The position numbers and the translations under genes are program-made. A stretch of 32,000 bases of DNA, taken from assembly GCF_000186885.1 (NCBI RefSeq), contig NC_014972.1, positions 1,440,001 through 1,472,000 of the forward strand. Direction: 5' to 3'. Source of the stretch: Desulfobulbus propionicus DSM 2032. GTDB lineage: Bacteria; Desulfobacterota; Desulfobulbia; Desulfobulbales; Desulfobulbaceae. This document shows positions 165-14,183 of this stretch, piece by piece. Below the pieces are notes generated by a model. It saw only the letters and a list, made by a program, of their open reading frames with translations. It did not search any database and was not told the origin of the DNA. Each line of letters starts with the position of its first letter. The first letter of the stretch is position 1.

Positions 165-1259
165 TTACCTCTCGGGTTTGACTCGCACATGGCAGACCCC
201 GGTCAGGGTCCGCTGTTCATAGGGAAAATATTTATTCTTCAGTCGCAGGGCCACATTAACCAAAGCGATTAACACCGGCACCTCGACCAGAGGACCGATG
301 ACCGCAGCAAAGGCTTCGCCGGAGTTGATACCGAAAACGGCGATGGCCACGGCTATCGCCAGCTCAAAATTGTTGGACGCGGCAGTGAAGCTCAAGGTGA
401 CGGTCTGCTCGTAGGTCGCCCCTGCTTTCAACGACAGGAAGAACGAGACCCCGAACATTATCAAAAAATAGATGGTTAAGGGCAGGGCAATACGCAACAC
501 ATCGAGTGGCAGCTGAACTATGTATTCACCCTTGAGCGAGAACATCACTAGAATGGTGAAGAGTAGGAAAATCAGGGTCAACGGGCTAATTTTTGGAATG
601 AACACCGTTTCATACCAGTCTCTGCCTTTCAACTTGATGCCAATCAGGCGACTGAGCATGCCGGCGATAAAGGGGATCCCCAGGTAAATGAACACCGATT
701 GGGCGATTTCGCCGATGGAGACATCGACCACTGCTCCGGACAGGCCGAACCAGCCGGGAATGACAGTGATGAAGATCCAGGCGTAGAGGGAGAAAAACAA
801 CACCTGGAAGATCGAGTTGAATGCCACCAATCCAGCGCAGTATTCGGTGTCGCCGTCTGCCAGATCGTTCCAGACAATGACCATGGCGATACAGCGGGCC
901 AAGCCGATGAGGATCAGGCCGACCATGTAGTGCTGCTGGCCGGAAAGCAGGGCGATGGCCAAGAGGAACATCAGCACTGGCCCGATCACCCAATTCTGTA
1001 CCAGGGAGAGCAGCAGCACCCGGCCATTGCGGAAGACCTGGCCCAGTTGCTCGTATTTCACTTTGGCCAAGGGCGGATACATCATCATGATCAGACCGAT
1101 GGCAATGGGAATGTTGGTAGTGCCCACTTGAAAGGCGTTGATCACATGCTGGACGCCGGGAACGGCATAACCGAGCATAACCCCGGCGAACATGGCGAGA
1201 AAGATCCACAGGGTAAGATACCGATCAAGAAAACTGAGTTGTTTTTGGTGCTGAGACAT
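165..1259 (-). CDS. acr3: arsenite efflux permease, Acr3 family
   Basis: 364-aa polytopic membrane ORF. The N-terminus ([20 protein letters not shown]) and overall hydrophobic pattern match Acr3/ArsB(ACR3) proteins. It is immediately followed by arsC. Confidence 0.93.
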
Positions 1260-1314: not shown

Positions 1315-1464
1315 TTGACGATACGATCATTTTTTAATCCGCCTGGGCGGATGCGTCAATCCCAAACAAGAATAGACTAGATGGAGGTTAGAGGAAGATG
1401 GGGATTTGATCAGAAAAGCGTTTGCCGGTTGTATTTTGAGGTTCGAGGAACGCCTCGCGCAGTC

Positions 1465-1506
1465 TAAATAAAAAGCAAACGGGCTACCAGATGGGCAGCC
1501 CGTTTG
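1465..1506 (-). terminator. rho-independent terminator of the molybdoenzyme operon
   Basis: On the minus strand: CAAACGGGCT (11-nt loop) AGCCCGTTTG, followed by CTTTTTATTTA. The stem is a perfect 10 bp (1476-1485 / 1497-1506), 22 nt downstream of the stop at 1528. Confidence 0.7.
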
Positions 1507-1527: not shown

Positions 1528-4500
1528 TTACACTTTGATCAGTTTCACCCTGGTGTCATAAAAAGACACGCTGCCGCCAACTTTGTCGATCATGCAGGTG
1601 TTCTTCAGATGAGGATCGACCCACATGGCGGCATTGGCATGGACGCCGCCGGCCCGCTTTTTGTCGCCCTTGACAAGTTTGCCGTCAATGGTCACATCCA
1701 CAGCCCCCGAATCCCAATGACCATGGCCCAGAGTAAAGGTAACCACTCCGGGGCGGATGGTCTCAGTCACTTGGACCTTACCGATCATCGGCTTCTTGTT
1801 GCCATTGCCCAGATCCCAGACACCATCCGGATTGGTGGCCGAAACCACCTTGACCTGGTCGCCGGTCTTCACCCCCAGCTTCTTGGCGTCGCCAGTGTGG
1901 AGGATAATCGCGTTCTCCGGCATGAGGTCGGTGAGATAGGGCATGGTGATGGTCCGCGCCTTGGTGTGGCGGATATCGCGCTGGGTGATCAGATGGAGCG
2001 GATAGCCCTCGGCGAGTTTGGCTGGCTCGTTGCCCAGGGTGTCGGCTACCGGCACATAGCGGGCAATGCCGTAGTAGGACTTGCCGGTGAAGGCATCCTT
2101 GCAGCCGGCGGTTTTCTCCTGGTAGAGATTGATCTGCTTGCCGCACTTGTTGGCCACCTGCTCGCCCTTGTAGGTGGCCGCCTGGGCGTCGAAGCGGCCG
2201 CCGCGATTCAGCACAGTCACCACCTTGGGCCAGGCAGCACCGGCGATCTTCTGCCAGCGTTCGGCATCAAAGACGTTTTTGGGTAGGTGCCGGCGTGATT
2301 TCAAGAACAGATCGATCTCCTCCTGAGAGGCGTCGGCCACCGGTTCCTTGCGGTCCAGGGCGATGTTGGCCACCATGCGGATGTAGAAGTCGTCCGGACG
2401 GCTGAAATCCTGGCCCTCGCCGAACCCGTCTTTACCAAATCCCTTGAAGCCTAGCTTTTCTGCAAGGGCGAGCCAGAAGGTCTCGTAGGAGATCGGCTGC
2501 TCCTCGCCAAAGACCTTGACCACCTCGTTGGGCGAGGCAATCACTGGCTGTCGGACCGGCTGGATGCGGACTGGCATGTTGGGATGCGAGCCCTGGAACT
2601 CCCAGCGCTCCAAGAAGTGGAGATCCGGGATGATGTAGTCGGCATACATCGAGGTCGGCCCGATAAGGATATCGCTGGCGATGTAGAGCGGCAGTTTGTC
2701 GAGATCGAGGAGGGCTTGAATCTGGGTATGCCCTGCCGGCAGAGAATAGGTCGGAGCCCCCATGTAGGAGAAGACCACCTTCGCCTGGTACGGATAGCCG
2801 TCGGCAATCGATGGCAGGATCTCTTCATAAACATCCGAGGAGATCGGCCACCAATTACGCTTGGCCGGATAGGACTCCTTGCCCTTGAACAGAGTGGATT
2901 CCTCGTATTTGATGTCGTGACGGATGATCGAGGTGCCGAAGGTCTTCAACCCCTTTGGTCCCATCTTCTTGAAGTTGAATGGCTGTTTGTCAGTGCTGCT
3001 GCTGGTACCGTCAACGTTGAAGGTCGAGGCGGCAATCATCCCGCCCTTCCAGTCGAAGTTGCCGATCAGCAGGTTGAGGTTCATGAAACTGGCGATATTG
3101 TAGAAGCCGTTGGTGTGCTGGGCCGGTCCTCGGTGCACATCGACACAGGCTTTCTTGCCGTAGCTGGTGAATTCCTTGGCCACGGCCTCGATGGTAGCCG
3201 CATCGGTGCCGCAGAGAGCCGCGTATTCGGAGAGTGTCTTCTCTTTGGCCGTCTCCAGCATCAGTTGCAGGCTACTCTTGACCTTGATTTCCTTGCCCTC
3301 GGCATCCTTGAGCAGGGTGTCGACGAATAGATCGCCGCTTACTGCTTGCTTGTCGTCGTTGGGGTCGAAGGCCACCGGTTGACCGTCCTTGATGGTCACC
3401 AGATATTCGAAGTCAAACTCCTTGCCGTCCTTGTCGGTGCGTTTCTCGGCTGCCTTCAAACCGATCTCCTGGGCGCGGAGGAACTTGCCGGGCTTGCCCT
3501 CTTTATCGAGCTTCACCAGCCAGGCACCGTTGCTCCAGGTCTGTTCCTTGATCACCGTGGCTGCCGCCTTGTTGCAGCAGGCGAGGAACTGGGCGTCATA
3601 CTTCTTGTTCTCCAATATCCAGCGGGTCATGCCCATAGCGAAGGCGGCATCGGTGCCGGGTAGCACCGGCACCCAACGCTGGGCTTTGGCTGCCAGCTTG
3701 GTGCAGCGCGGATCGAGCACGGTTATCTTCAGCTTGCCGTCGGCCATCCGCTGGGTCATGCGCATGGCGCGGTTGGTGGGGCCGTAGTTGCCGTCGAACA
3801 GGTTGGCGCCGACAAAGAGGATGTAGTCGCTGTTCTCCTGGTCCGCCTGCCAGTAGAATTTCTGGCCGTCCTTGAAGCTGTTGCCGACATACTGCTCACT
3901 CATTGCCTTGCAGGCGAAGTAGAGCGAACCCTGACAGACCGTAGTATGGCCGTGGGTGTTGTTGGTGCCGAAAGCACCGGTGAAGGCGGCGGCGAAATTT
4001 GAGCGACCGGCTTTCTTGCGACCCCAGAAGTAGACGAATTGATTGTTCTTGGGTCCGAAGTCGGGATGCTCCGGGTCGATCAGGGCAGCCAAGTTGGCGG
4101 CATGTTTGGCCTTGAACTCCTCGATAGCCGCCTGCCGCTCCTCGGGTTTTTTCTTGCGCAGCGCTACGGCATCCTTGCCCATATCCTCGAAGGCCTTGCT
4201 GTCGGTCAGGGCATACAACTCTTTCAAGCCGGAAATCTGACGATTCTCCTCGCCGGTTACATGGGCAAACAGTTTGCCGCCACTGACAATCTCCTCAATG
4301 GCCTGGTTGAAAGGGATTGTGGTCCACTTGTTTTCCCCACGCTTGCCAGCCCGTTTCAACACCCTGGTCACTCGGTAGGGATCGTAGGCCCCCTGGTGGC
4401 CTGCCTGCCCCTTGGGACAGAGACCGGCGTCGACCATGACTGCCGTGGCTGGCGCATCCTTCATCTCCAGATGCGGATGGAGGTTGAAGGGATTGTAGGG

Positions 4501-4767
4501 ATTGCCGTCGATCTTGACCGCAACGCCATCGAGAATCTTGACCTTGATGCCGCAGCCGGTATTGCAGTTGAGGCAGACGGAATAAAGAGTGTTCTCCGCC
4601 TTGAGCAGTTCGTAGGCCTCGGCCTGGGTCAGTTCACCGGCCTCGACCCGGGCGATCAGGTCGCGGGCGAAATCGAAATGGGTGGCCACGATGGCGCCGC
4701 AACCGGCCAGGGCCGAAGTTTTGAGGAAATCGCGGCGGGAGACGGTTTTTGCATTCTTATTTGCCAT
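1528..4767 (-). CDS. TAT-exported molybdopterin (bis-MGD) oxidoreductase catalytic subunit, tetrathionate-reductase (TtrA)-like; substrate unknown
   Basis: The ORF spans 1528..4797. The preferred start is ATG 4767, giving MANKNAKTVSRRDFLK (twin-arginine signal). It has an N-terminal CLNCNTGCG...C 4Fe-4S motif and is about 1079 aa. Blocks such as WTTIPFNQAIEEIVSGG, HPDFGPKNNQ and VPVLPGTDAAFAMGMTRWILENKKYDAQFL resemble Salmonella TtrA as I remember it. Confidence 0.85.
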   Translation of the reverse strand: MANKNAKTVSRRDFLKTSALAGCGAIVATHFDFARDLIARVEAGELTQAEAYELLKAENTLYSVCLNCNTGCGIKVKILDGVAVKIDGNPYNPFNLHPHLEMKDAPATAVMVDAGLCPKGQAGHQGAYDPYRVTRVLKRAGKRGENKWTTIPFNQAIEEIVSGGKLFAHVTGEENRQISGLKELYALTDSKAFEDMGKDAVALRKKKPEERQAAIEEFKAKHAANLAALIDPEHPDFGPKNNQFVYFWGRKKAGRSNFAAAFTGAFGTNNTHGHTTVCQGSLYFACKAMSEQYVGNSFKDGQKFYWQADQENSDYILFVGANLFDGNYGPTNRAMRMTQRMADGKLKITVLDPRCTKLAAKAQRWVPVLPGTDAAFAMGMTRWILENKKYDAQFLACCNKAAATVIKEQTWSNGAWLVKLDKEGKPGKFLRAQEIGLKAAEKRTDKDGKEFDFEYLVTIKDGQPVAFDPNDDKQAVSGDLFVDTLLKDAEGKEIKVKSSLQLMLETAKEKTLSEYAALCGTDAATIEAVAKEFTSYGKKACVDVHRGPAQHTNGFYNIASFMNLNLLIGNFDWKGGMIAASTFNVDGTSSSTDKQPFNFKKMGPKGLKTFGTSIIRHDIKYEESTLFKGKESYPAKRNWWPISSDVYEEILPSIADGYPYQAKVVFSYMGAPTYSLPAGHTQIQALLDLDKLPLYIASDILIGPTSMYADYIIPDLHFLERWEFQGSHPNMPVRIQPVRQPVIASPNEVVKVFGEEQPISYETFWLALAEKLGFKGFGKDGFGEGQDFSRPDDFYIRMVANIALDRKEPVADASQEEIDLFLKSRRHLPKNVFDAERWQKIAGAAWPKVVTVLNRGGRFDAQAATYKGEQVANKCGKQINLYQEKTAGCKDAFTGKSYYGIARYVPVADTLGNEPAKLAEGYPLHLITQRDIRHTKARTITMPYLTDLMPENAIILHTGDAKKLGVKTGDQVKVVSATNPDGVWDLGNGNKKPMIGKVQVTETIRPGVVTFTLGHGHWDSGAVDVTIDGKLVKGDKKRAGGVHANAAMWVDPHLKNTCMIDKVGGSVSFYDTRVKLIKV

Positions 4768-5518
4768 AGAGCACCTCCAGCTTTTCGGTGGCGACATAGT
4801 AGACCCGTGGCGCGGTTTTCTTGGCCGGCTTGAGCACTTGGACCTTGTTCGCCTTTTTGACCTGGGCGATCAGGCTCTGGGGATCGTTCTCATCGCCAAA
4901 ATATCCGGACCGGCCGATGCAGGTAGTGATGCACATTGGTAACTGTCCTACAGCAAGGCGGTGGAGACAGAAATGGCATTTGCGGGCATTGCCCACCGGA
5001 GTGTTCTTGCCGGAGCGGGGCCATTTCTTGCCATATTCATAGCTGGCCATGGTCTCGTACTTTTGGATTGCCGGCGTACCGTCGCCGTGCATGCCGCCCT
5101 GATCCATGGTGCGGGCGTCGTAAGGGCAAGCAGGTACGCAGGCACCGCAACCGATGCACTGTTCGTAATTGATCATGACCAAGCCGGCGCTGAGACCCTC
5201 TGTTGACTTCCAGGTGGCTCCGTCCTTGCCCTTAACCGGACAGGCGGCGACACAGGGTGGATTGTCGCACTGCATGCAGGGCCGGGGGAGAAAGGTTCGG
5301 CTCACCTTGGGGTATTTGCCCTGCTCGTATTCATGCACCGGACGATAGTACATGCCGGGCGGCAGTTTATTTTCCGAAACACAGCCAACGGTGCAAGCAT
5401 GACAACCGACGCACTTGCGCAGGTCAATCAGCATGGCCCATCGGCGGCTCTTCTCGGGTGCCTTGAGGGCTCGCTCGAGATCTTTCTGCATCACTACCAG
5501 AATATCTTCGTTCTGCAT
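4757..5518 (-). CDS. 4Fe-4S ferredoxin-type electron-transfer subunit (TtrB/PsrB/DmsB-like)
   Basis: 253 aa with several CxxCxxCxxxCP cluster motifs (CVGCHACTVGC, CMQCDNPPCVAACP, CIGCGACVPACP, CHFCLHR...C). A strong SD (AAAGGAGGAAAGGA) precedes the ATG at 5518. It overlaps the downstream catalytic-subunit start by 11 nt. Confidence 0.9.
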   Translation of the reverse strand: MQNEDILVVMQKDLERALKAPEKSRRWAMLIDLRKCVGCHACTVGCVSENKLPPGMYYRPVHEYEQGKYPKVSRTFLPRPCMQCDNPPCVAACPVKGKDGATWKSTEGLSAGLVMINYEQCIGCGACVPACPYDARTMDQGGMHGDGTPAIQKYETMASYEYGKKWPRSGKNTPVGNARKCHFCLHRLAVGQLPMCITTCIGRSGYFGDENDPQSLIAQVKKANKVQVLKPAKKTAPRVYYVATEKLEVLYGK

Positions 5519-5539
5519 TCCTTTCCTCCTTTGATGGGC

Positions 5540-5842
5540 TTATTTCTTGTGGCAGCTTTCGCAATTTTCCTTAACGCTGAAGGCCTTTTTGCCGTTATGA
5601 CAGGCGCCACAGGATTTACCCTGCTCCATGGCCTTCATGGTCACCGCCTTATGCTGCTTGGTGTTGGTATAGAGCTTGGCATGGCAGTCCTGACACTTCA
5701 ATTCTGCCCCTGTCACATGATTTTCGTGGCTGAAAACCGTGTCTCCTCCCTTGTTTTTCATGGTGACATCGCCGCCGCCGATGCCGGCAAAGGCAACGCT
5801 TCCGGATAACATGACAAGTACCGCAGCTCGAGCCCACTTCAT
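5540..5842 (-). CDS. periplasmic triheme cytochrome c, c7/c3 (PpcA-like) family
   Basis: Three CXXCH motifs (CQDCH, CGACH, CESCH) with a C-terminal CHKK as in Geobacter PpcA-type c7 cytochromes. Signal peptide MKWARAAVLVMLSGSVAFA. ATG 5842 is preferred over the GTG at 5848 because GGGAGGTG sits 4-5 nt upstream. Confidence 0.88.
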   Translation of the reverse strand: MKWARAAVLVMLSGSVAFAGIGGGDVTMKNKGGDTVFSHENHVTGAELKCQDCHAKLYTNTKQHKAVTMKAMEQGKSCGACHNGKKAFSVKENCESCHKK

Positions 5843-5870
5843 GGTCACCTCCCTGGCTAAGGTTTATTGA

Positions 5871-5888
5871 CCGTATAAATATATCCGG
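5871..5888. promoter_or_regulatory. imperfect 18-bp palindrome CCGTATAAATATATCCGG in the divergent arsR / cytochrome promoter region
   Basis: 7 of 9 positions pair across the centre. It lies in the 116-bp gap between the divergent starts at 5842 (-) and 5959 (+). The AT-rich core is compatible with an ArsR/SmtB-type operator, but this is unverified. Confidence 0.25.
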
Positions 5889-5958
5889 CTAGACAGATGT
5901 TTACAAGGCGGGAGTGGGAACCGTTGACGTTAATTTTTCGCTGCGGTATTTTGGTGCG

Positions 5959-6309
5959 ATGCAAACAATTACTGAACTGTTCAAATCACTGTCCGATGAA
6001 ACCAGGCTGCGTCTGCTCATTCTCCTGCAAGGGGGAAGCGAGTATTGCGTCTGCGACTTAATGAACGCGCTTGATATGCCGCAATCGACGGTCTCCCGCC
6101 ATTTGGCCTATCTGAAACGAAACGGATGGCTACAGGATCGGCGAGGTGGGGTATGGATGTATTATTCCTTGAAGAAAGACATGGATGCCTTTCTCCAGGC
6201 CCAACTGGTTCTCCTCATCAATCAGTTGGCGAACAATCCTGTCTACAGGGCTGATAAGCGGCGCCTTGAAGCGTACCTGCAGGCCAAGAACCCCAATTCC
6301 TGCAAATAA
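5959..6309 (+). CDS. arsR: ArsR/SmtB family metalloregulator with CVC As(III)-binding motif
   Basis: MQTITELFKSLSDETRLRLLILLQGGSEYCVCDLMNALDMPQSTVSRHLAYLKRNGWL contains a winged-HTH and an EYCVCDL motif (compare ELCVCDL of R773 ArsR). The ATG at 5959 is preferred over the upstream GTG at 5914. Confidence 0.9.
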   Translation: MQTITELFKSLSDETRLRLLILLQGGSEYCVCDLMNALDMPQSTVSRHLAYLKRNGWLQDRRGGVWMYYSLKKDMDAFLQAQLVLLINQLANNPVYRADKRRLEAYLQAKNPNSCK

Positions 6310-6324
6310 CTGGGAGGAGCCATC

Positions 6325-7392
6325 ATGTATCGGGGGTGGCCGTTCTCTTGTCTTCCCCGGCTTGAATGGCTCCAGATAGAGATTAGTTCCGACTGCACGG
6401 CCAACTGTTTTTATTGCCCCCGAACCGTGTACAAAGACCGATGGCTCACTCAGCATATGGAGGAGAGCCTTTTCCGCCGCTTGCTGCCAGCTTTCAAGAA
6501 AATTCGCTTCGTCCACCTGCAGGGCTGGGGCGATCCTTTCACTCACCCTCAATTCTTTGACTTTGCCCGCCTTGCCAAACATGCCGGCTGCCAGGTGGGA
6601 ACCACCACCAACGGTATGCTGCTCAACGAGCGGATATGCGAACAGTTAGTCGAAGAACGCATTGACACAGTCGGGTTTTCCCTTGCCGGAACCGGCGCGG
6701 AGAACGATCACTATCGCCAAGGCACACGCCTTGAGAAAGTGTTGTCAGTCATTGAGGACATCCACCGGGCAAAGCAGCGAACTGGTGCCGACCGGCCACA
6801 CCTGCACATTGCCTATCTTTTACTCAAGTCCGGGATAGCATACCTTGACCGTCTACCTGATCTGTTGCGCAACAGAGGTATTGCACAGGTGGTTATCAGT
6901 ACCTTGGATGCGGTCGGCAGCCCTTTGTTGGCGAATGAAACGTTCTCGCCCGAGGATCGACTTGAAATGGACGAGGTGCGGCAGCATCTGGAAGAGGTTG
7001 TCGACGCCGGGCGCAAGGTGGGCCTGACCATCTACTACCGGCTCCCGGCAAATCCGAAAAAACAGGAGGGAGACCGACAATACATTGAAGATGAATCGTT
7101 CATTCCAATCCCTGAGCCGCAAATGTGCAGCGAAAATGTACAGTGTGCTGCCTTTATAGGCGTGACCGGCAACGTGTCGCCTTGCGTTTTTGTCAATTTG
7201 CCCATAACCGCTCCACCACCTGATCCTGCCGATTCCATAGCTCACCCCTATCGTCCCGTCGTGTTTGGCACCATAGCGAATGCCCGTTTTGAAAAAATCT
7301 GGCATTCACAGCCGTATGCATCCTTCCGCAAGGCTCATCACTCCGGCGCCATTCCAGCTGCATGCGAGCTGTGCACAAAGTTTTCTCGATAA
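6325..7392 (+). CDS. radical SAM enzyme with C-terminal Cys-rich (SPASM/twitch-like) region
   Basis: CX3CX2C motif (SSDCTANCFYCPR) near the N-terminus. C-terminal cysteines CSENVQCAAFIGVTGNVSPC and CELC. SD GGGAGGAG lies 6 nt upstream. The start is 15 nt after the arsR stop, so the two genes are probably co-transcribed. Confidence 0.85.
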   Translation: MYRGWPFSCLPRLEWLQIEISSDCTANCFYCPRTVYKDRWLTQHMEESLFRRLLPAFKKIRFVHLQGWGDPFTHPQFFDFARLAKHAGCQVGTTTNGMLLNERICEQLVEERIDTVGFSLAGTGAENDHYRQGTRLEKVLSVIEDIHRAKQRTGADRPHLHIAYLLLKSGIAYLDRLPDLLRNRGIAQVVISTLDAVGSPLLANETFSPEDRLEMDEVRQHLEEVVDAGRKVGLTIYYRLPANPKKQEGDRQYIEDESFIPIPEPQMCSENVQCAAFIGVTGNVSPCVFVNLPITAPPPDPADSIAHPYRPVVFGTIANARFEKIWHSQPYASFRKAHHSGAIPAACELCTKFSR

Positions 7393-12618: not shown

Positions 12619-12903
12619 ATGAACAAAACCGAATTGATTGATAAGGTCGCCAAAGAAAGCGCCTTGAGTAAATCAGCCGCCGAACAGGTGGTGAACAGCG
12701 TCTTCTCAGCCATCGCAGAGGCGATGAAGACCGGCGACAAGGTGACTCTGGCCGGATTTGGCACCTTCTCCACTGCTGACCGAGCCGCCCGTGAAGGACG
12801 AAATCCGCAATCGGGAGAAAAGATTGCTATTCCAGCTAAAAAGGCAGTGAAATTTAAACCTGGTTCGAAGCTTGTTGATGTTATTCAATGCCCAGAGAAT
12901 TGA
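12619..12903 (+). CDS. hup: HU family nucleoid-associated DNA-binding protein
   Basis: MNKTELIDKVAKESALSKSAAEQVVNSVFSAIAEAMKTGDKVTLAGFGTFSTADRAAREGRNPQSGEKIAIPAKKAVKFKPGSKL is nearly collinear with E. coli HupA/HupB, including the GFGTF...R..R.GRNPQTG arm. Confidence 0.93.
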   Translation: MNKTELIDKVAKESALSKSAAEQVVNSVFSAIAEAMKTGDKVTLAGFGTFSTADRAAREGRNPQSGEKIAIPAKKAVKFKPGSKLVDVIQCPEN

Positions 12904-13933
12904 TTCGGTCAACAGCTTTCAATTTATGTTCGTTGAGAAGGTGGGTGTAGCGTAAAACCATCTGTAAGGTGCTGTGTCCGAGTATCGCTGCCAAGGTTCT
13001 GATATCGGTGCCTGCCATGAGCATCTGGCTAGCAGCAGTATGGCGAAGGTCATGCATGTGCAAGAGTGGCAACTTTGCACGTTCCCTGGCTCTGTCAAAT
13101 GAAGGTCTGAACCTTGAAGATGGAATGTTTTGGGCGTGCTGGCTTTTTCCTTCTCCTTTGAGAAAGACGAATTCATTGTCAAAGGCAGTTTTTTTCAGAT
13201 CTTCAAGGGCTGTAATAACAGTTTTTGTTAAAGGGACGGTTCTTGGTTCATTTTTCGTAATATAGAGGGTCAGGGAGCGTCTATCGAAATCAATCTGGTG
13301 CCATTTCAATCCGGCAGCTTCACTTGGGCGCATCGCCGTGTGGAGCAGGATCAACACGTAAGGATACAGCCTTTTATTGCGACTAGCCTTGCATTCTTTG
13401 AGCAAACGTACAGCTTCATCTTCTTTGAGAAAGAAAATCCTCCCTTTGGGAACCTTTGGGCGTTCAATCGATTTGACAGGATTTTCAATAGGTAGTTCCC
13501 ATTCTTTGCAGGCTTTGATGAAAAGGTGAGAAAGAAGAGCCAATTCCAACCGCACCGCATACGCAGATACTGATTTTAAACGTTGGTCCCGATATTTTGC
13601 GACGACGGATGGTGTGATATCGGGTAATAAAGTGTTCCTGCCAAATTTTTCTTTCAGAAGTTTTGCTATTCTTCTTTCCCGTTCCTGGGTTGTCAGGGCT
13701 TTTTGGGAAGTAACTGTTTCCAGATAGCGGTCAAAGGCCTCGTCAAGCGTACGATGAGCACGGCGCGGGTCTTTGAACCGCTGGTTTTTCATCTCCGCTT
13801 CCATTTCTGCTGCCCAGATACGTGCCTCTCCTTTTGTGTCGAACGTCCTGCTTATCGACTCGTATCCCTTGACGCGAACAGTAATGGTGTATGTCGTTTT
13901 CTTTTTCCCTTTTCTTGTGAGGATTCGAGCCAT
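12881..13933 (-). CDS. tyrosine recombinase / phage-type integrase
   Basis: Catalytic signature: LHTAMRPSEAAGLKW (Arg), HDLRHTAAS (H-x-x-R) and LGHSTLQMVLRYTHL (His, Tyr). The ATG at 13933 (MARILTRKGKKK) is preferred, with GAGGGTGG upstream; the ORF itself extends to 14011. It is adjacent to the tRNA-Leu 3' end. Confidence 0.9.
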   Translation of the reverse strand: MARILTRKGKKKTTYTITVRVKGYESISRTFDTKGEARIWAAEMEAEMKNQRFKDPRRAHRTLDEAFDRYLETVTSQKALTTQERERRIAKLLKEKFGRNTLLPDITPSVVAKYRDQRLKSVSAYAVRLELALLSHLFIKACKEWELPIENPVKSIERPKVPKGRIFFLKEDEAVRLLKECKASRNKRLYPYVLILLHTAMRPSEAAGLKWHQIDFDRRSLTLYITKNEPRTVPLTKTVITALEDLKKTAFDNEFVFLKGEGKSQHAQNIPSSRFRPSFDRARERAKLPLLHMHDLRHTAASQMLMAGTDIRTLAAILGHSTLQMVLRYTHLLNEHKLKAVDRINSLGIE

Positions 13934-14040
13934 TTTGCCACCCTCGTTTTTGTTCCATTTTTGTTCCACTTCTTTCGTCAAAATATAGCAAAAGAGAGCA
14001 CGAGAAAGCAAAAGGAATTTGTAAAGGAGGGGAGGGGAGG

Positions 14041-14087
14041 GGAGAAGAAAAGGGCTAACATCTCTCTATTTTCGAGATGTTAGCCCT
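14041..14087 (-). terminator. rho-independent terminator downstream of tRNA-Leu (potentially bidirectional)
   Basis: Perfect 14-bp stem AGGGCTAACATCTC / GAGATGTTAGCCCT (14051-14064 / 14074-14087). It is flanked by T-rich runs on both strands (TTTCTTCTCC on minus, TATTTTCTTTT on plus). Confidence 0.6.
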
Positions 14088-14097
14088 TATTTTCTTT

Positions 14098-14183
14098 TGG
14101 TACCCGGAACGAGAATCGAACTCGTACAGCCAAAGGCCGAGGGATTTTAAGTCCCTTGCGTCTACCAGTTCCGCCATCCGGGC
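14098..14183 (-). tRNA. tRNA-Leu (anticodon UAA), CCA encoded
   Basis: The reverse complement is GCCCGGATGGCGGAACTGGTAGACGCAAGGGACTTAAAATCCCTCGGCCTTTGGCTGTACGAGTTCGATTCTCGTTCCGGGTACCA. It folds as a class II cloverleaf: 7-bp acceptor, anticodon stem AGGGA/TCCCT with loop CTTAAAA, a long variable arm, and T-arm ACGAG-TTCGATT-CTCGT. It is very close to E. coli leuZ. Confidence 0.95.

Follow-up and report, generated by a model that had tools for sequence, protein, structure and literature searches.

The window analysed here, a stretch of 32,000 nucleotides (nt) from the genome of Desulfobulbus propionicus DSM 2032 (NC_014972.1, positions 1,440,001 to 1,472,000), contains an operon of three intact and tightly packed genes on the minus strand of 1528-5842. 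Positions given below are those of the window unless they are called genome positions. The first gene (5540..5842) encodes a periplasmic triheme c7-type cytochrome, the second (4757..5518) a TtrB-like electron-transfer subunit (B) of 253 amino acids (aa) with four [4Fe-4S] clusters, and the third (1528..4767) the catalytic subunit (A) of the molybdenum or tungsten bis-pyranopterin guanine dinucleotide (Mo/W-bisPGD) type. The c7 and B genes are separated by 21 nt, and the end of B and the start of A share 11 nt. The reading frame of A is open to 4797 (1528-4797); M11 at 4767 is its likely start, which gives 1079 aa, because homologues are 1066-1089 aa long and the motif SRRDFLK follows M11. An intrinsic terminator with a stem of 13 bp, including 8 GC pairs, and a T-rich tail closes the operon (1476..1506, minus strand). 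As laid out below, the product of this c7-B-A operon is likely to be an arsenate reductase of the Ttr-like (TtrA-homologue) clade, soluble in the periplasm, presumably fed by the c7 cytochrome and probably controlled by ArsR.

The operon is embedded in an arsenic resistance locus. Divergent from it lies arsR (5959..6309, plus strand), encoding an ArsR/SmtB repressor with the As(III)-binding motif CVC (HTH_5; NF033788, 84 bits), and the gap between the two transcription units (5843-5958) amounts to exactly 116 bp. Downstream on the minus strand follows acr3 (165..1259), which encodes an ACR3 arsenite efflux permease (TIGR00832, 457 bits). Just beyond the window start there are two arsC genes of the low molecular weight phosphatase (LMWP) type, and then genes for ArsA, a second ArsR and ArsP. 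No NrfD-family gene was found near the operon: the four of the genome are located at 0.295, 2.512, 2.519 and 3.824 Mb, the nearest being more than 1 Mb away from the locus at 1.44 Mb, and the 11-nt overlap leaves no room for one between B and A. An initial annotation, made from the letters of this stretch, had described the same layout, i.e. an operon for a triheme c7, a four-cluster iron-sulfur (FeS) subunit and a catalytic subunit of about 1079 aa with a twin-arginine translocation (TAT) signal, placed between arsR and acr3-arsC, sharing a 116-bp divergent promoter region with a CVC-motif ArsR and lacking a TtrC/PsrC-type membrane subunit. All of these points were confirmed.

The three subunits show the features expected for their classes. 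We counted as c7-type a mature domain of about 70 residues that contains three CXXCH motifs and is recognised by the c7 models; the 100-aa precursor encoded here has such a domain with the haem motifs CQDCH, CGACH and CESCH, is preceded by a signal peptide of the general secretory (Sec) type ending in AFA, and scores 69 bits with PF14522 (cut-off 24.8) and 90 bits with TIGR04257 (cut-off 40). Subunit B has 16 cysteines in four complete ferredoxin motifs and reaches 174 bits with the TtrB model NF011569 (cut-off 416). A signal peptide was sought in B, and no hydrophobic leader was present; the first cysteine motif begins at residue 36, directly after SRRWAML. In subunit A, which matches the Pfam families Molybdopterin, Molydop_binding and Molybdop_Fe4S4, the TAT motif SRRDFLK is followed by the cysteines of the FS0 cluster (C75/C78/C82/C127) and by Cys288 within an invariant HGHTTVCQGS.

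The name given to subunit A by NCBI is merely 'molybdopterin-dependent oxidoreductase'. Its best curated model is TtrA (NF011567) with 475 bits, far below the cut-off of 1750; PhsA reaches 214 bits and ArrA (NF041714) 118 bits against a cut-off of 1600. These values agree with the earlier description of the protein as TtrA-like and not ArrA- or ArxA-like. The active-site stretch was compared with ArrA (6CZ7) and PsrA (2VPW) by phmmer and by local alignments with the family profile. WGR(260) and GR(265) are invariant in 72/72 family rows and the local sequence equals that of strain PSR-1 (see below), in a region (residues 250-300) that the alignments to 6CZ7 and 2VPW skip. A Gly-Arg motif near the substrate site is described as present in arsenic enzymes and absent from true Ttr (PMC12949373).

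Geobacter sp. OR-1 and Anaeromyxobacter sp. PSR-1 are both known arsenate respirers, and TtrA homologues have reportedly been recognised as their respiratory arsenate reductases, by Tsuchiya et al. in 2019 for OR-1 and by Muramatsu et al. in 2020 for PSR-1. The proteins at the loci of these relatives were identified by exact look-up as WP_041969781.1 (OR-1) and WP_059435911.1 (PSR-1), and over its full length the catalytic subunit of D. propionicus is 76% and 71% identical to them, respectively. The operon as a whole is orthologous in both strains and begins in each with a c7 gene. The FeS subunits are 72-74% identical to those of OR-1 and PSR-1, and the cytochromes in the same position 56% (OR-1) and 48% (PSR-1). 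All three catalytic subunits score alike with the TtrA model (PSR-1 452, window 475, OR-1 492 bits) and share the same TAT, FS0, cysteine and GR-containing motifs.

A phylogeny, which the initial annotation had named as a check, placed the window protein within a clade containing the PSR-1 and OR-1 enzymes, both by FastTree (support 100, 76 rows) and by IQ-TREE (SH-aLRT 100, 39 rows), and there in the OR-1 subclade (support 99). The outgroups of these trees were the other molybdoenzymes of the genome, and the distance to bona fide TtrA and ArrA was judged from the curated hidden Markov model (HMM) scores. The operon thus belongs to a known type of system, with the same c7-B-A order at both published loci, and the earlier statement that such an architecture was not a described system does not hold.

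In PMC11462812 the two proteins serve as reference 'TtrA' respiratory As(V) reductases; they are stated there to be induced about 14-fold (PSR-1) and about 6-fold (OR-1) during As(V) respiration and to exhibit As(V) reductase activity. Ttr-like arsenate reductases are, according to PMC12949373, phylogenetically apart from true Ttr and Arr, and do not reduce tetrathionate. A canonical ArrA or TtrA was not found in the D. propionicus genome (for ArrA, nothing above the cut-off), and therefore the operon is the sole candidate for a respiratory arsenate reductase there. In this the host, a Desulfobulbus-type sulfate reducer without arrA, differs from PSR-1 and OR-1.

Shewanella ArrAB is supplied by a separate c-type cytochrome, CymA. 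Like ArrAB of strain ANA-3 (PDB 6CZ7), the enzyme described here would be a soluble periplasmic AB complex without a dedicated anchor; both are members of the same superfamily with a cysteine ligand, and ArrAB is induced by arsenic, as the operon of the window would be. The two nevertheless belong to separate clades, as the ArrA score far below the cut-off indicates. ArrA is about 230 residues shorter, the order in arr operons is arrA-arrB and not B before A, and no c7 gene is part of the arr operon.

How common the exchange of a membrane anchor for a c7 cytochrome is was surveyed in species-representative genomes. The scan yielded 162 relatives, for which 80 loci were fetched, together with the window's own 81 loci. 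The open reading frames of these loci were clustered and mapped on the tree, the FeS and c7 genes being detected by cluster, and ars linkage was counted as ars genes within 8 kb. Ten loci from basal lineages (Spirochaetota, Chloroflexota, Planctomycetota and others; 52-57% identity) have no adjacent c7 gene (0/8) and an NrfD-family gene in five of eight; this membrane subunit is encoded between B and A, as in the classical order ttrBCA. Clades A and B form the crown of the tree (support 90-97), and the NrfD gene is lost in both. Clade B (Nitrospirota and others, 22 loci) has an adjacent c7 gene in 16 of 20 cases, and its operons frequently contain FmdE and MoeA-like genes and in some cases two tandem c7 genes (L044, L045). 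Clade A comprises 40 loci including PSR-1, OR-1 and the window, with an adjacent c7 gene in 27 of 38. The c7 in place of a membrane anchor is thus a family-wide trait, present at the published loci and not peculiar to D. propionicus. One cluster of the survey (cluster 38) had to be abandoned as a uniform TtrC-like anchor, for one of its members is the DsrP of an unrelated dsr cluster; those members that lie between B and A proved to be NrfD-family proteins on recheck.

Linkage to ars genes sets clade A apart within the family: 23/40 loci have it, against 1/22 in the sister clade B (basal lineages 2/10). ArsR orthologues (cluster 19) flank the operon in 20/40 clade A loci. AioX/ArrX-like sets, in which a stand-alone phosphonate-type binding protein is accompanied by a histidine kinase plus a response regulator, occur in 13/40 clade A loci. 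In PSR-1 the upstream place that ArsR takes in the window locus is occupied by genes for an AioX/ArrX-like binding protein and a kinase, and such an AioXSR/ArrXSR-type arrangement beside a Ttr-like operon was noted in Melioribacter (PMC5492636). The OR-1 operon, like that of the window, is divergent from arsR-arsC-acr3, a site known as the 'second arsenic island' of that strain (PMC4319506). Compatible with a substrate that resembles phosphate, a gene for a phosphate-selective porin or for a PstS-like protein is present at a few loci.

Some of these neighbours deserve a separate mention. In OR-1 (L063:11345-14751) and at locus L011 the reductase is directly followed by genes for a PstS-like binding protein and for a methyl-accepting chemotaxis protein of 837 aa. 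In OR-1 a further copy of the dyad described in the next paragraph precedes these genes, which may form an arsenic- or phosphate-analogue-responsive chemotaxis module. In two Acidobacteriota loci (L033, L034) a gene for a phosphate-selective porin O/P abuts the reductase operon; a pairing with porin O/P was likewise noted for a Ttr homologue in Dissulfuribacter (PMC13490349).

The 116-bp gap contains two back-to-back promoters of the sigma-70 type. That of the operon (5878..5906, minus strand) consists of TTGTAA (-35, 5906-5901), a 17 nt spacer and TATATT (-10, 5883-5878), and its elements are conserved across the aligned gaps; that of arsR (5924..5952, plus strand) consists of TTGACG, a 17 nt spacer and TATTTT. 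A dyad with the consensus ATCYG-N6-CRGAT (5883..5898) overlaps the spacer and the -10 box of the operon promoter. It is conserved in the gap alignment of eleven Desulfobulbus-type loci and OR-1, and is kept directly upstream of the operon in 13 loci including OR-1. A second exact copy (1337..1352) lies about 80 nt upstream of acr3, and copies close to acr3 are found in most close relatives. These two are the only exact matches in the window, where about 0.1 would be expected by chance. In 1.18 Mb of related loci 43 exact dyads were counted versus 4.5 expected, and 29/43 of them lie at most 150 nt upstream of the start of a c7/FeS operon, arsR, acr3 or arsC. This zone makes up 2.6% of the sequence, which gives a binomial p of 7e-36, a value that overstates the independence of the loci, as they are related. 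The dyad is carried by several lineages: OR-1 has three copies, and at L011, where the operon lacks a c7 gene, it is found before B.

The ArsR of the window has the motif EYCVCDL and matches the winged-helix ArsR/SmtB models; the third cysteine of the R773 site is absent. Given its position and conservation, the dyad is probably the operator of ArsR, and as such it would place the reductase and acr3-arsC in one regulon that As(III) derepresses. Together with the orthology and the ars context, this makes the proposal of the initial annotation probable, namely a terminal reductase that responds to arsenic and belongs to a non-Arr lineage. As a side observation, the -10 box of arsR ends 6 nt before the ATG (5947-5961) and no Shine-Dalgarno sequence is present, so the arsR mRNA may be leaderless.

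The following mechanism is suggested by these features. The triheme c7 would be exported via Sec. Since B has no signal peptide of its own, it is probably exported by the TAT pathway while bound to A. Electrons would pass from a periplasmic or membrane cytochrome network to c7, then through the four [4Fe-4S] clusters of B to the FS0 cluster of A, and would finally reduce As(V) to As(III) at the Mo-bisPGD site with its Cys288 ligand. The initial annotation had likewise presumed that the small cytochrome delivers the electrons, and the lack of a membrane anchor at the locus speaks for that role. Because the complex has no quinol-oxidising NrfD/TtrC subunit, any energy coupling would have to take place upstream of c7. 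ArsR would bind the dyad in the operon promoter as well as the second copy upstream of acr3-arsC-arsC, and As(III) at the CVC site would release it, so that reductase and detoxification genes are induced together.

Several points weigh against an arsenate reductase of this kind. A gene for the electron donor of c7 is absent from the locus; the cytochromes of the genome include c3-type proteins, a two-domain c7 protein adjoining NrfD-type complexes and one NrfH paired with NrfA. Eleven of the 38 clade A loci are without an adjacent c7 gene and consist of B-A only, which makes c7 a frequent and not an obligatory partner; this is compatible with an enzyme supplied from a common pool of periplasmic cytochromes. 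The enrichment of the dyad was calculated from loci that are kin. The activity and induction data of the orthologues come via secondary citations (PMC11462812, PMC12949373). Substrate specificity varies inside the TtrA/SrdA/alternative-ArrA family (PMC10100899), and a caution given in PMC11462812 itself is that tetrathionate reductases may be among the environmental 'ttrA' sequences. Apart from this question, a second molybdoenzyme gene (844-aa frame) was noticed outside the window at genome positions 1566123-1569000, which is preceded by a gene for a small c7/c3-like cytochrome.

Among the other possible functions, the one that survives best is the reduction of a different metalloid or chalcogen oxyanion as main substrate, such as antimonate or selenate, the operon being co-regulated since CVC-type ArsR and Acr3 respond to Sb(III). 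TtrA, SrdA (a selenate reductase) and the alternative arsenate reductase form one catalytically versatile family (PMC10100899), Sb(V) is a further substrate of the canonical ArrA from Shewanella ANA-3 (cited in PMC12183865), and sequence analysis does not separate As(V) from Sb(V) as substrate. We nevertheless consider this function unlikely. The closest studied orthologues, at 71-76% identity, are arsenate-induced and arsenate-active according to PMC11462812, and the neighbours in the clade are arsC, AioX/ArrX-like binding proteins, phosphate-selective porins and PstS-like proteins. A literature search for the antimonate reductase AnrA gave nothing that links it to clade A enzymes.

Still less probable is a reductase of sulfur compounds (tetrathionate, thiosulfate or polysulfide) serving the sulfur metabolism of Desulfobulbus-type bacteria, with an incidental ars neighbourhood. 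TtrA is the best curated match, and as in the TtrBCA systems of Salmonella and Shewanella the catalytic subunit is a TAT-signal protein of the DMSO-reductase family with about 1020-1080 aa whose gene is preceded by that for B. In Desulfobacterota that disproportionate sulfur, certain growth conditions go along with a higher abundance of Ttr homologues (PMC13490349, PMC9751629), and some relatives encode LuxR-type two-component regulators like TtrSR. In contrast to TtrBCA, however, subunit A scores far below the equivalog cut-off (475 vs 1750 bits), no NrfD-type TtrC is encoded between B and A, and B is without the TAT leader that TtrB has. The PSR-1-type enzyme, as reported in PMC12949373, does not reduce tetrathionate. 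The operon and acr3 promoters carry the same dyad, which points to regulation by ArsR and not by TtrSR, and the linkage to ars genes recurs in several lineages of clade A.

The haems of c7-type cytochromes are of low potential and therefore suited to act as electron donors towards the As(V)/As(III) couple and not as acceptors from it. An anaerobic Arx-like arsenite oxidase, working in the oxidative direction and passing electrons from As(III) to c7, would suit an induction by As(III) through ArsR, and Arr and Arx are close relatives with opposite directions, but besides the haem potentials the absence of a gene for a high-potential acceptor nearby and the ties of the orthologues to As(V) respiration (PMC11462812) make it highly improbable. 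Orthology and gene context together argue against all three alternatives and for the reduction of arsenate.

Trees of the family also provide hints on the origin of the arsenate reductase operon. The Desulfobulbus sequences, which are 88-94% identical among each other, nest inside successive branches of Geobacteraceae. c7 cytochromes are typical of Desulfuromonadales-type organisms. In one Desulfobulbus metagenome-assembled genome (MAG) the entire arsR/c7-B-A/acr3 block is present twice, on separate contigs (L006, L023), and a copy of 89% identity is found in a MAG labelled Terriglobia (L004), due either to transfer or to mis-binning. The nesting, the MAG with two copies and the L004 copy together suggest gene transfer into Desulfobulbus from Desulfuromonadales-type organisms. 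In the window a tRNA-Leu(UAA) gene with an adjacent integrase was confirmed at 12881-14183, and the locus adjoins this element, a neighbourhood that sets it apart from the PSR-1 and OR-1 loci. The search for the distal attachment (att) repeat of the tRNA-Leu gene revealed no repeat of at least 14 nt in 80 kb towards lower coordinates, and none that would place the ars/reductase locus inside the element.

A wider reading joins these observations; we regard it as possible yet rather doubtful. In this reading a c7 exported via Sec would have replaced the quinol-oxidising NrfD anchor once, at the base of the crown, giving a self-contained and horizontally mobile c7-B-A cassette that could be connected to periplasmic cytochrome pools of any kind. 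The arsenic clade would have drawn this cassette into the ArsR regulon via the shared ATCYG-N6-CRGAT operator. In the sulfidogenic Desulfobulbus the enzyme may then be mainly an ArsR-controlled periplasmic arsenate sink or a step of detoxification, which receives electrons from a periplasmic hydrogenase or formate dehydrogenase via c3/c7, and not part of an energy-conserving respiration.

In paddy soils the transcription of Ttr-like arsenate reductases is reported to exceed that of arrA (PMC11462812), yet both arrA-based surveys and standard annotation miss them. The locus extends the PSR-1/OR-1 clade to Desulfobulbus-type sulfate reducers without arrA, in which the three-gene c7-B-A unit is seen moving together with ars genes, and provides a concrete candidate operator motif that links the reductase to ArsR. 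What is added here is the distribution of anchor and c7, the clade-specific ars linkage, the shared dyad and the nesting of the Desulfobulbus copies in the Geobacteraceae. The gene-based prediction of arsenic mobilisation can thereby improve, and the known picture of how the enzyme works remains unchanged.

Two further neighbours of the locus are mentioned for completeness. A radical SAM/SPASM gene (6325..7392, plus strand) begins 15 nt behind arsR, which is another difference from the PSR-1 and OR-1 loci, and may be co-regulated with it. Its product scores 134 bits with TIGR04317, a model for the maturase of a tungsten-cofactor oxidoreductase, below the cut-off of 380. The gene is found next to arsR only in the window locus, L004 and L006 and is therefore no conserved partner of the reductase. 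Beside the ars island, upstream of the window (L081:8580-13108, genome positions 1430580-1435108), lies an ATP-synthase-like operon with genes for the subunits a, b/delta, alpha and gamma, which may encode an accessory N-type ATPase.

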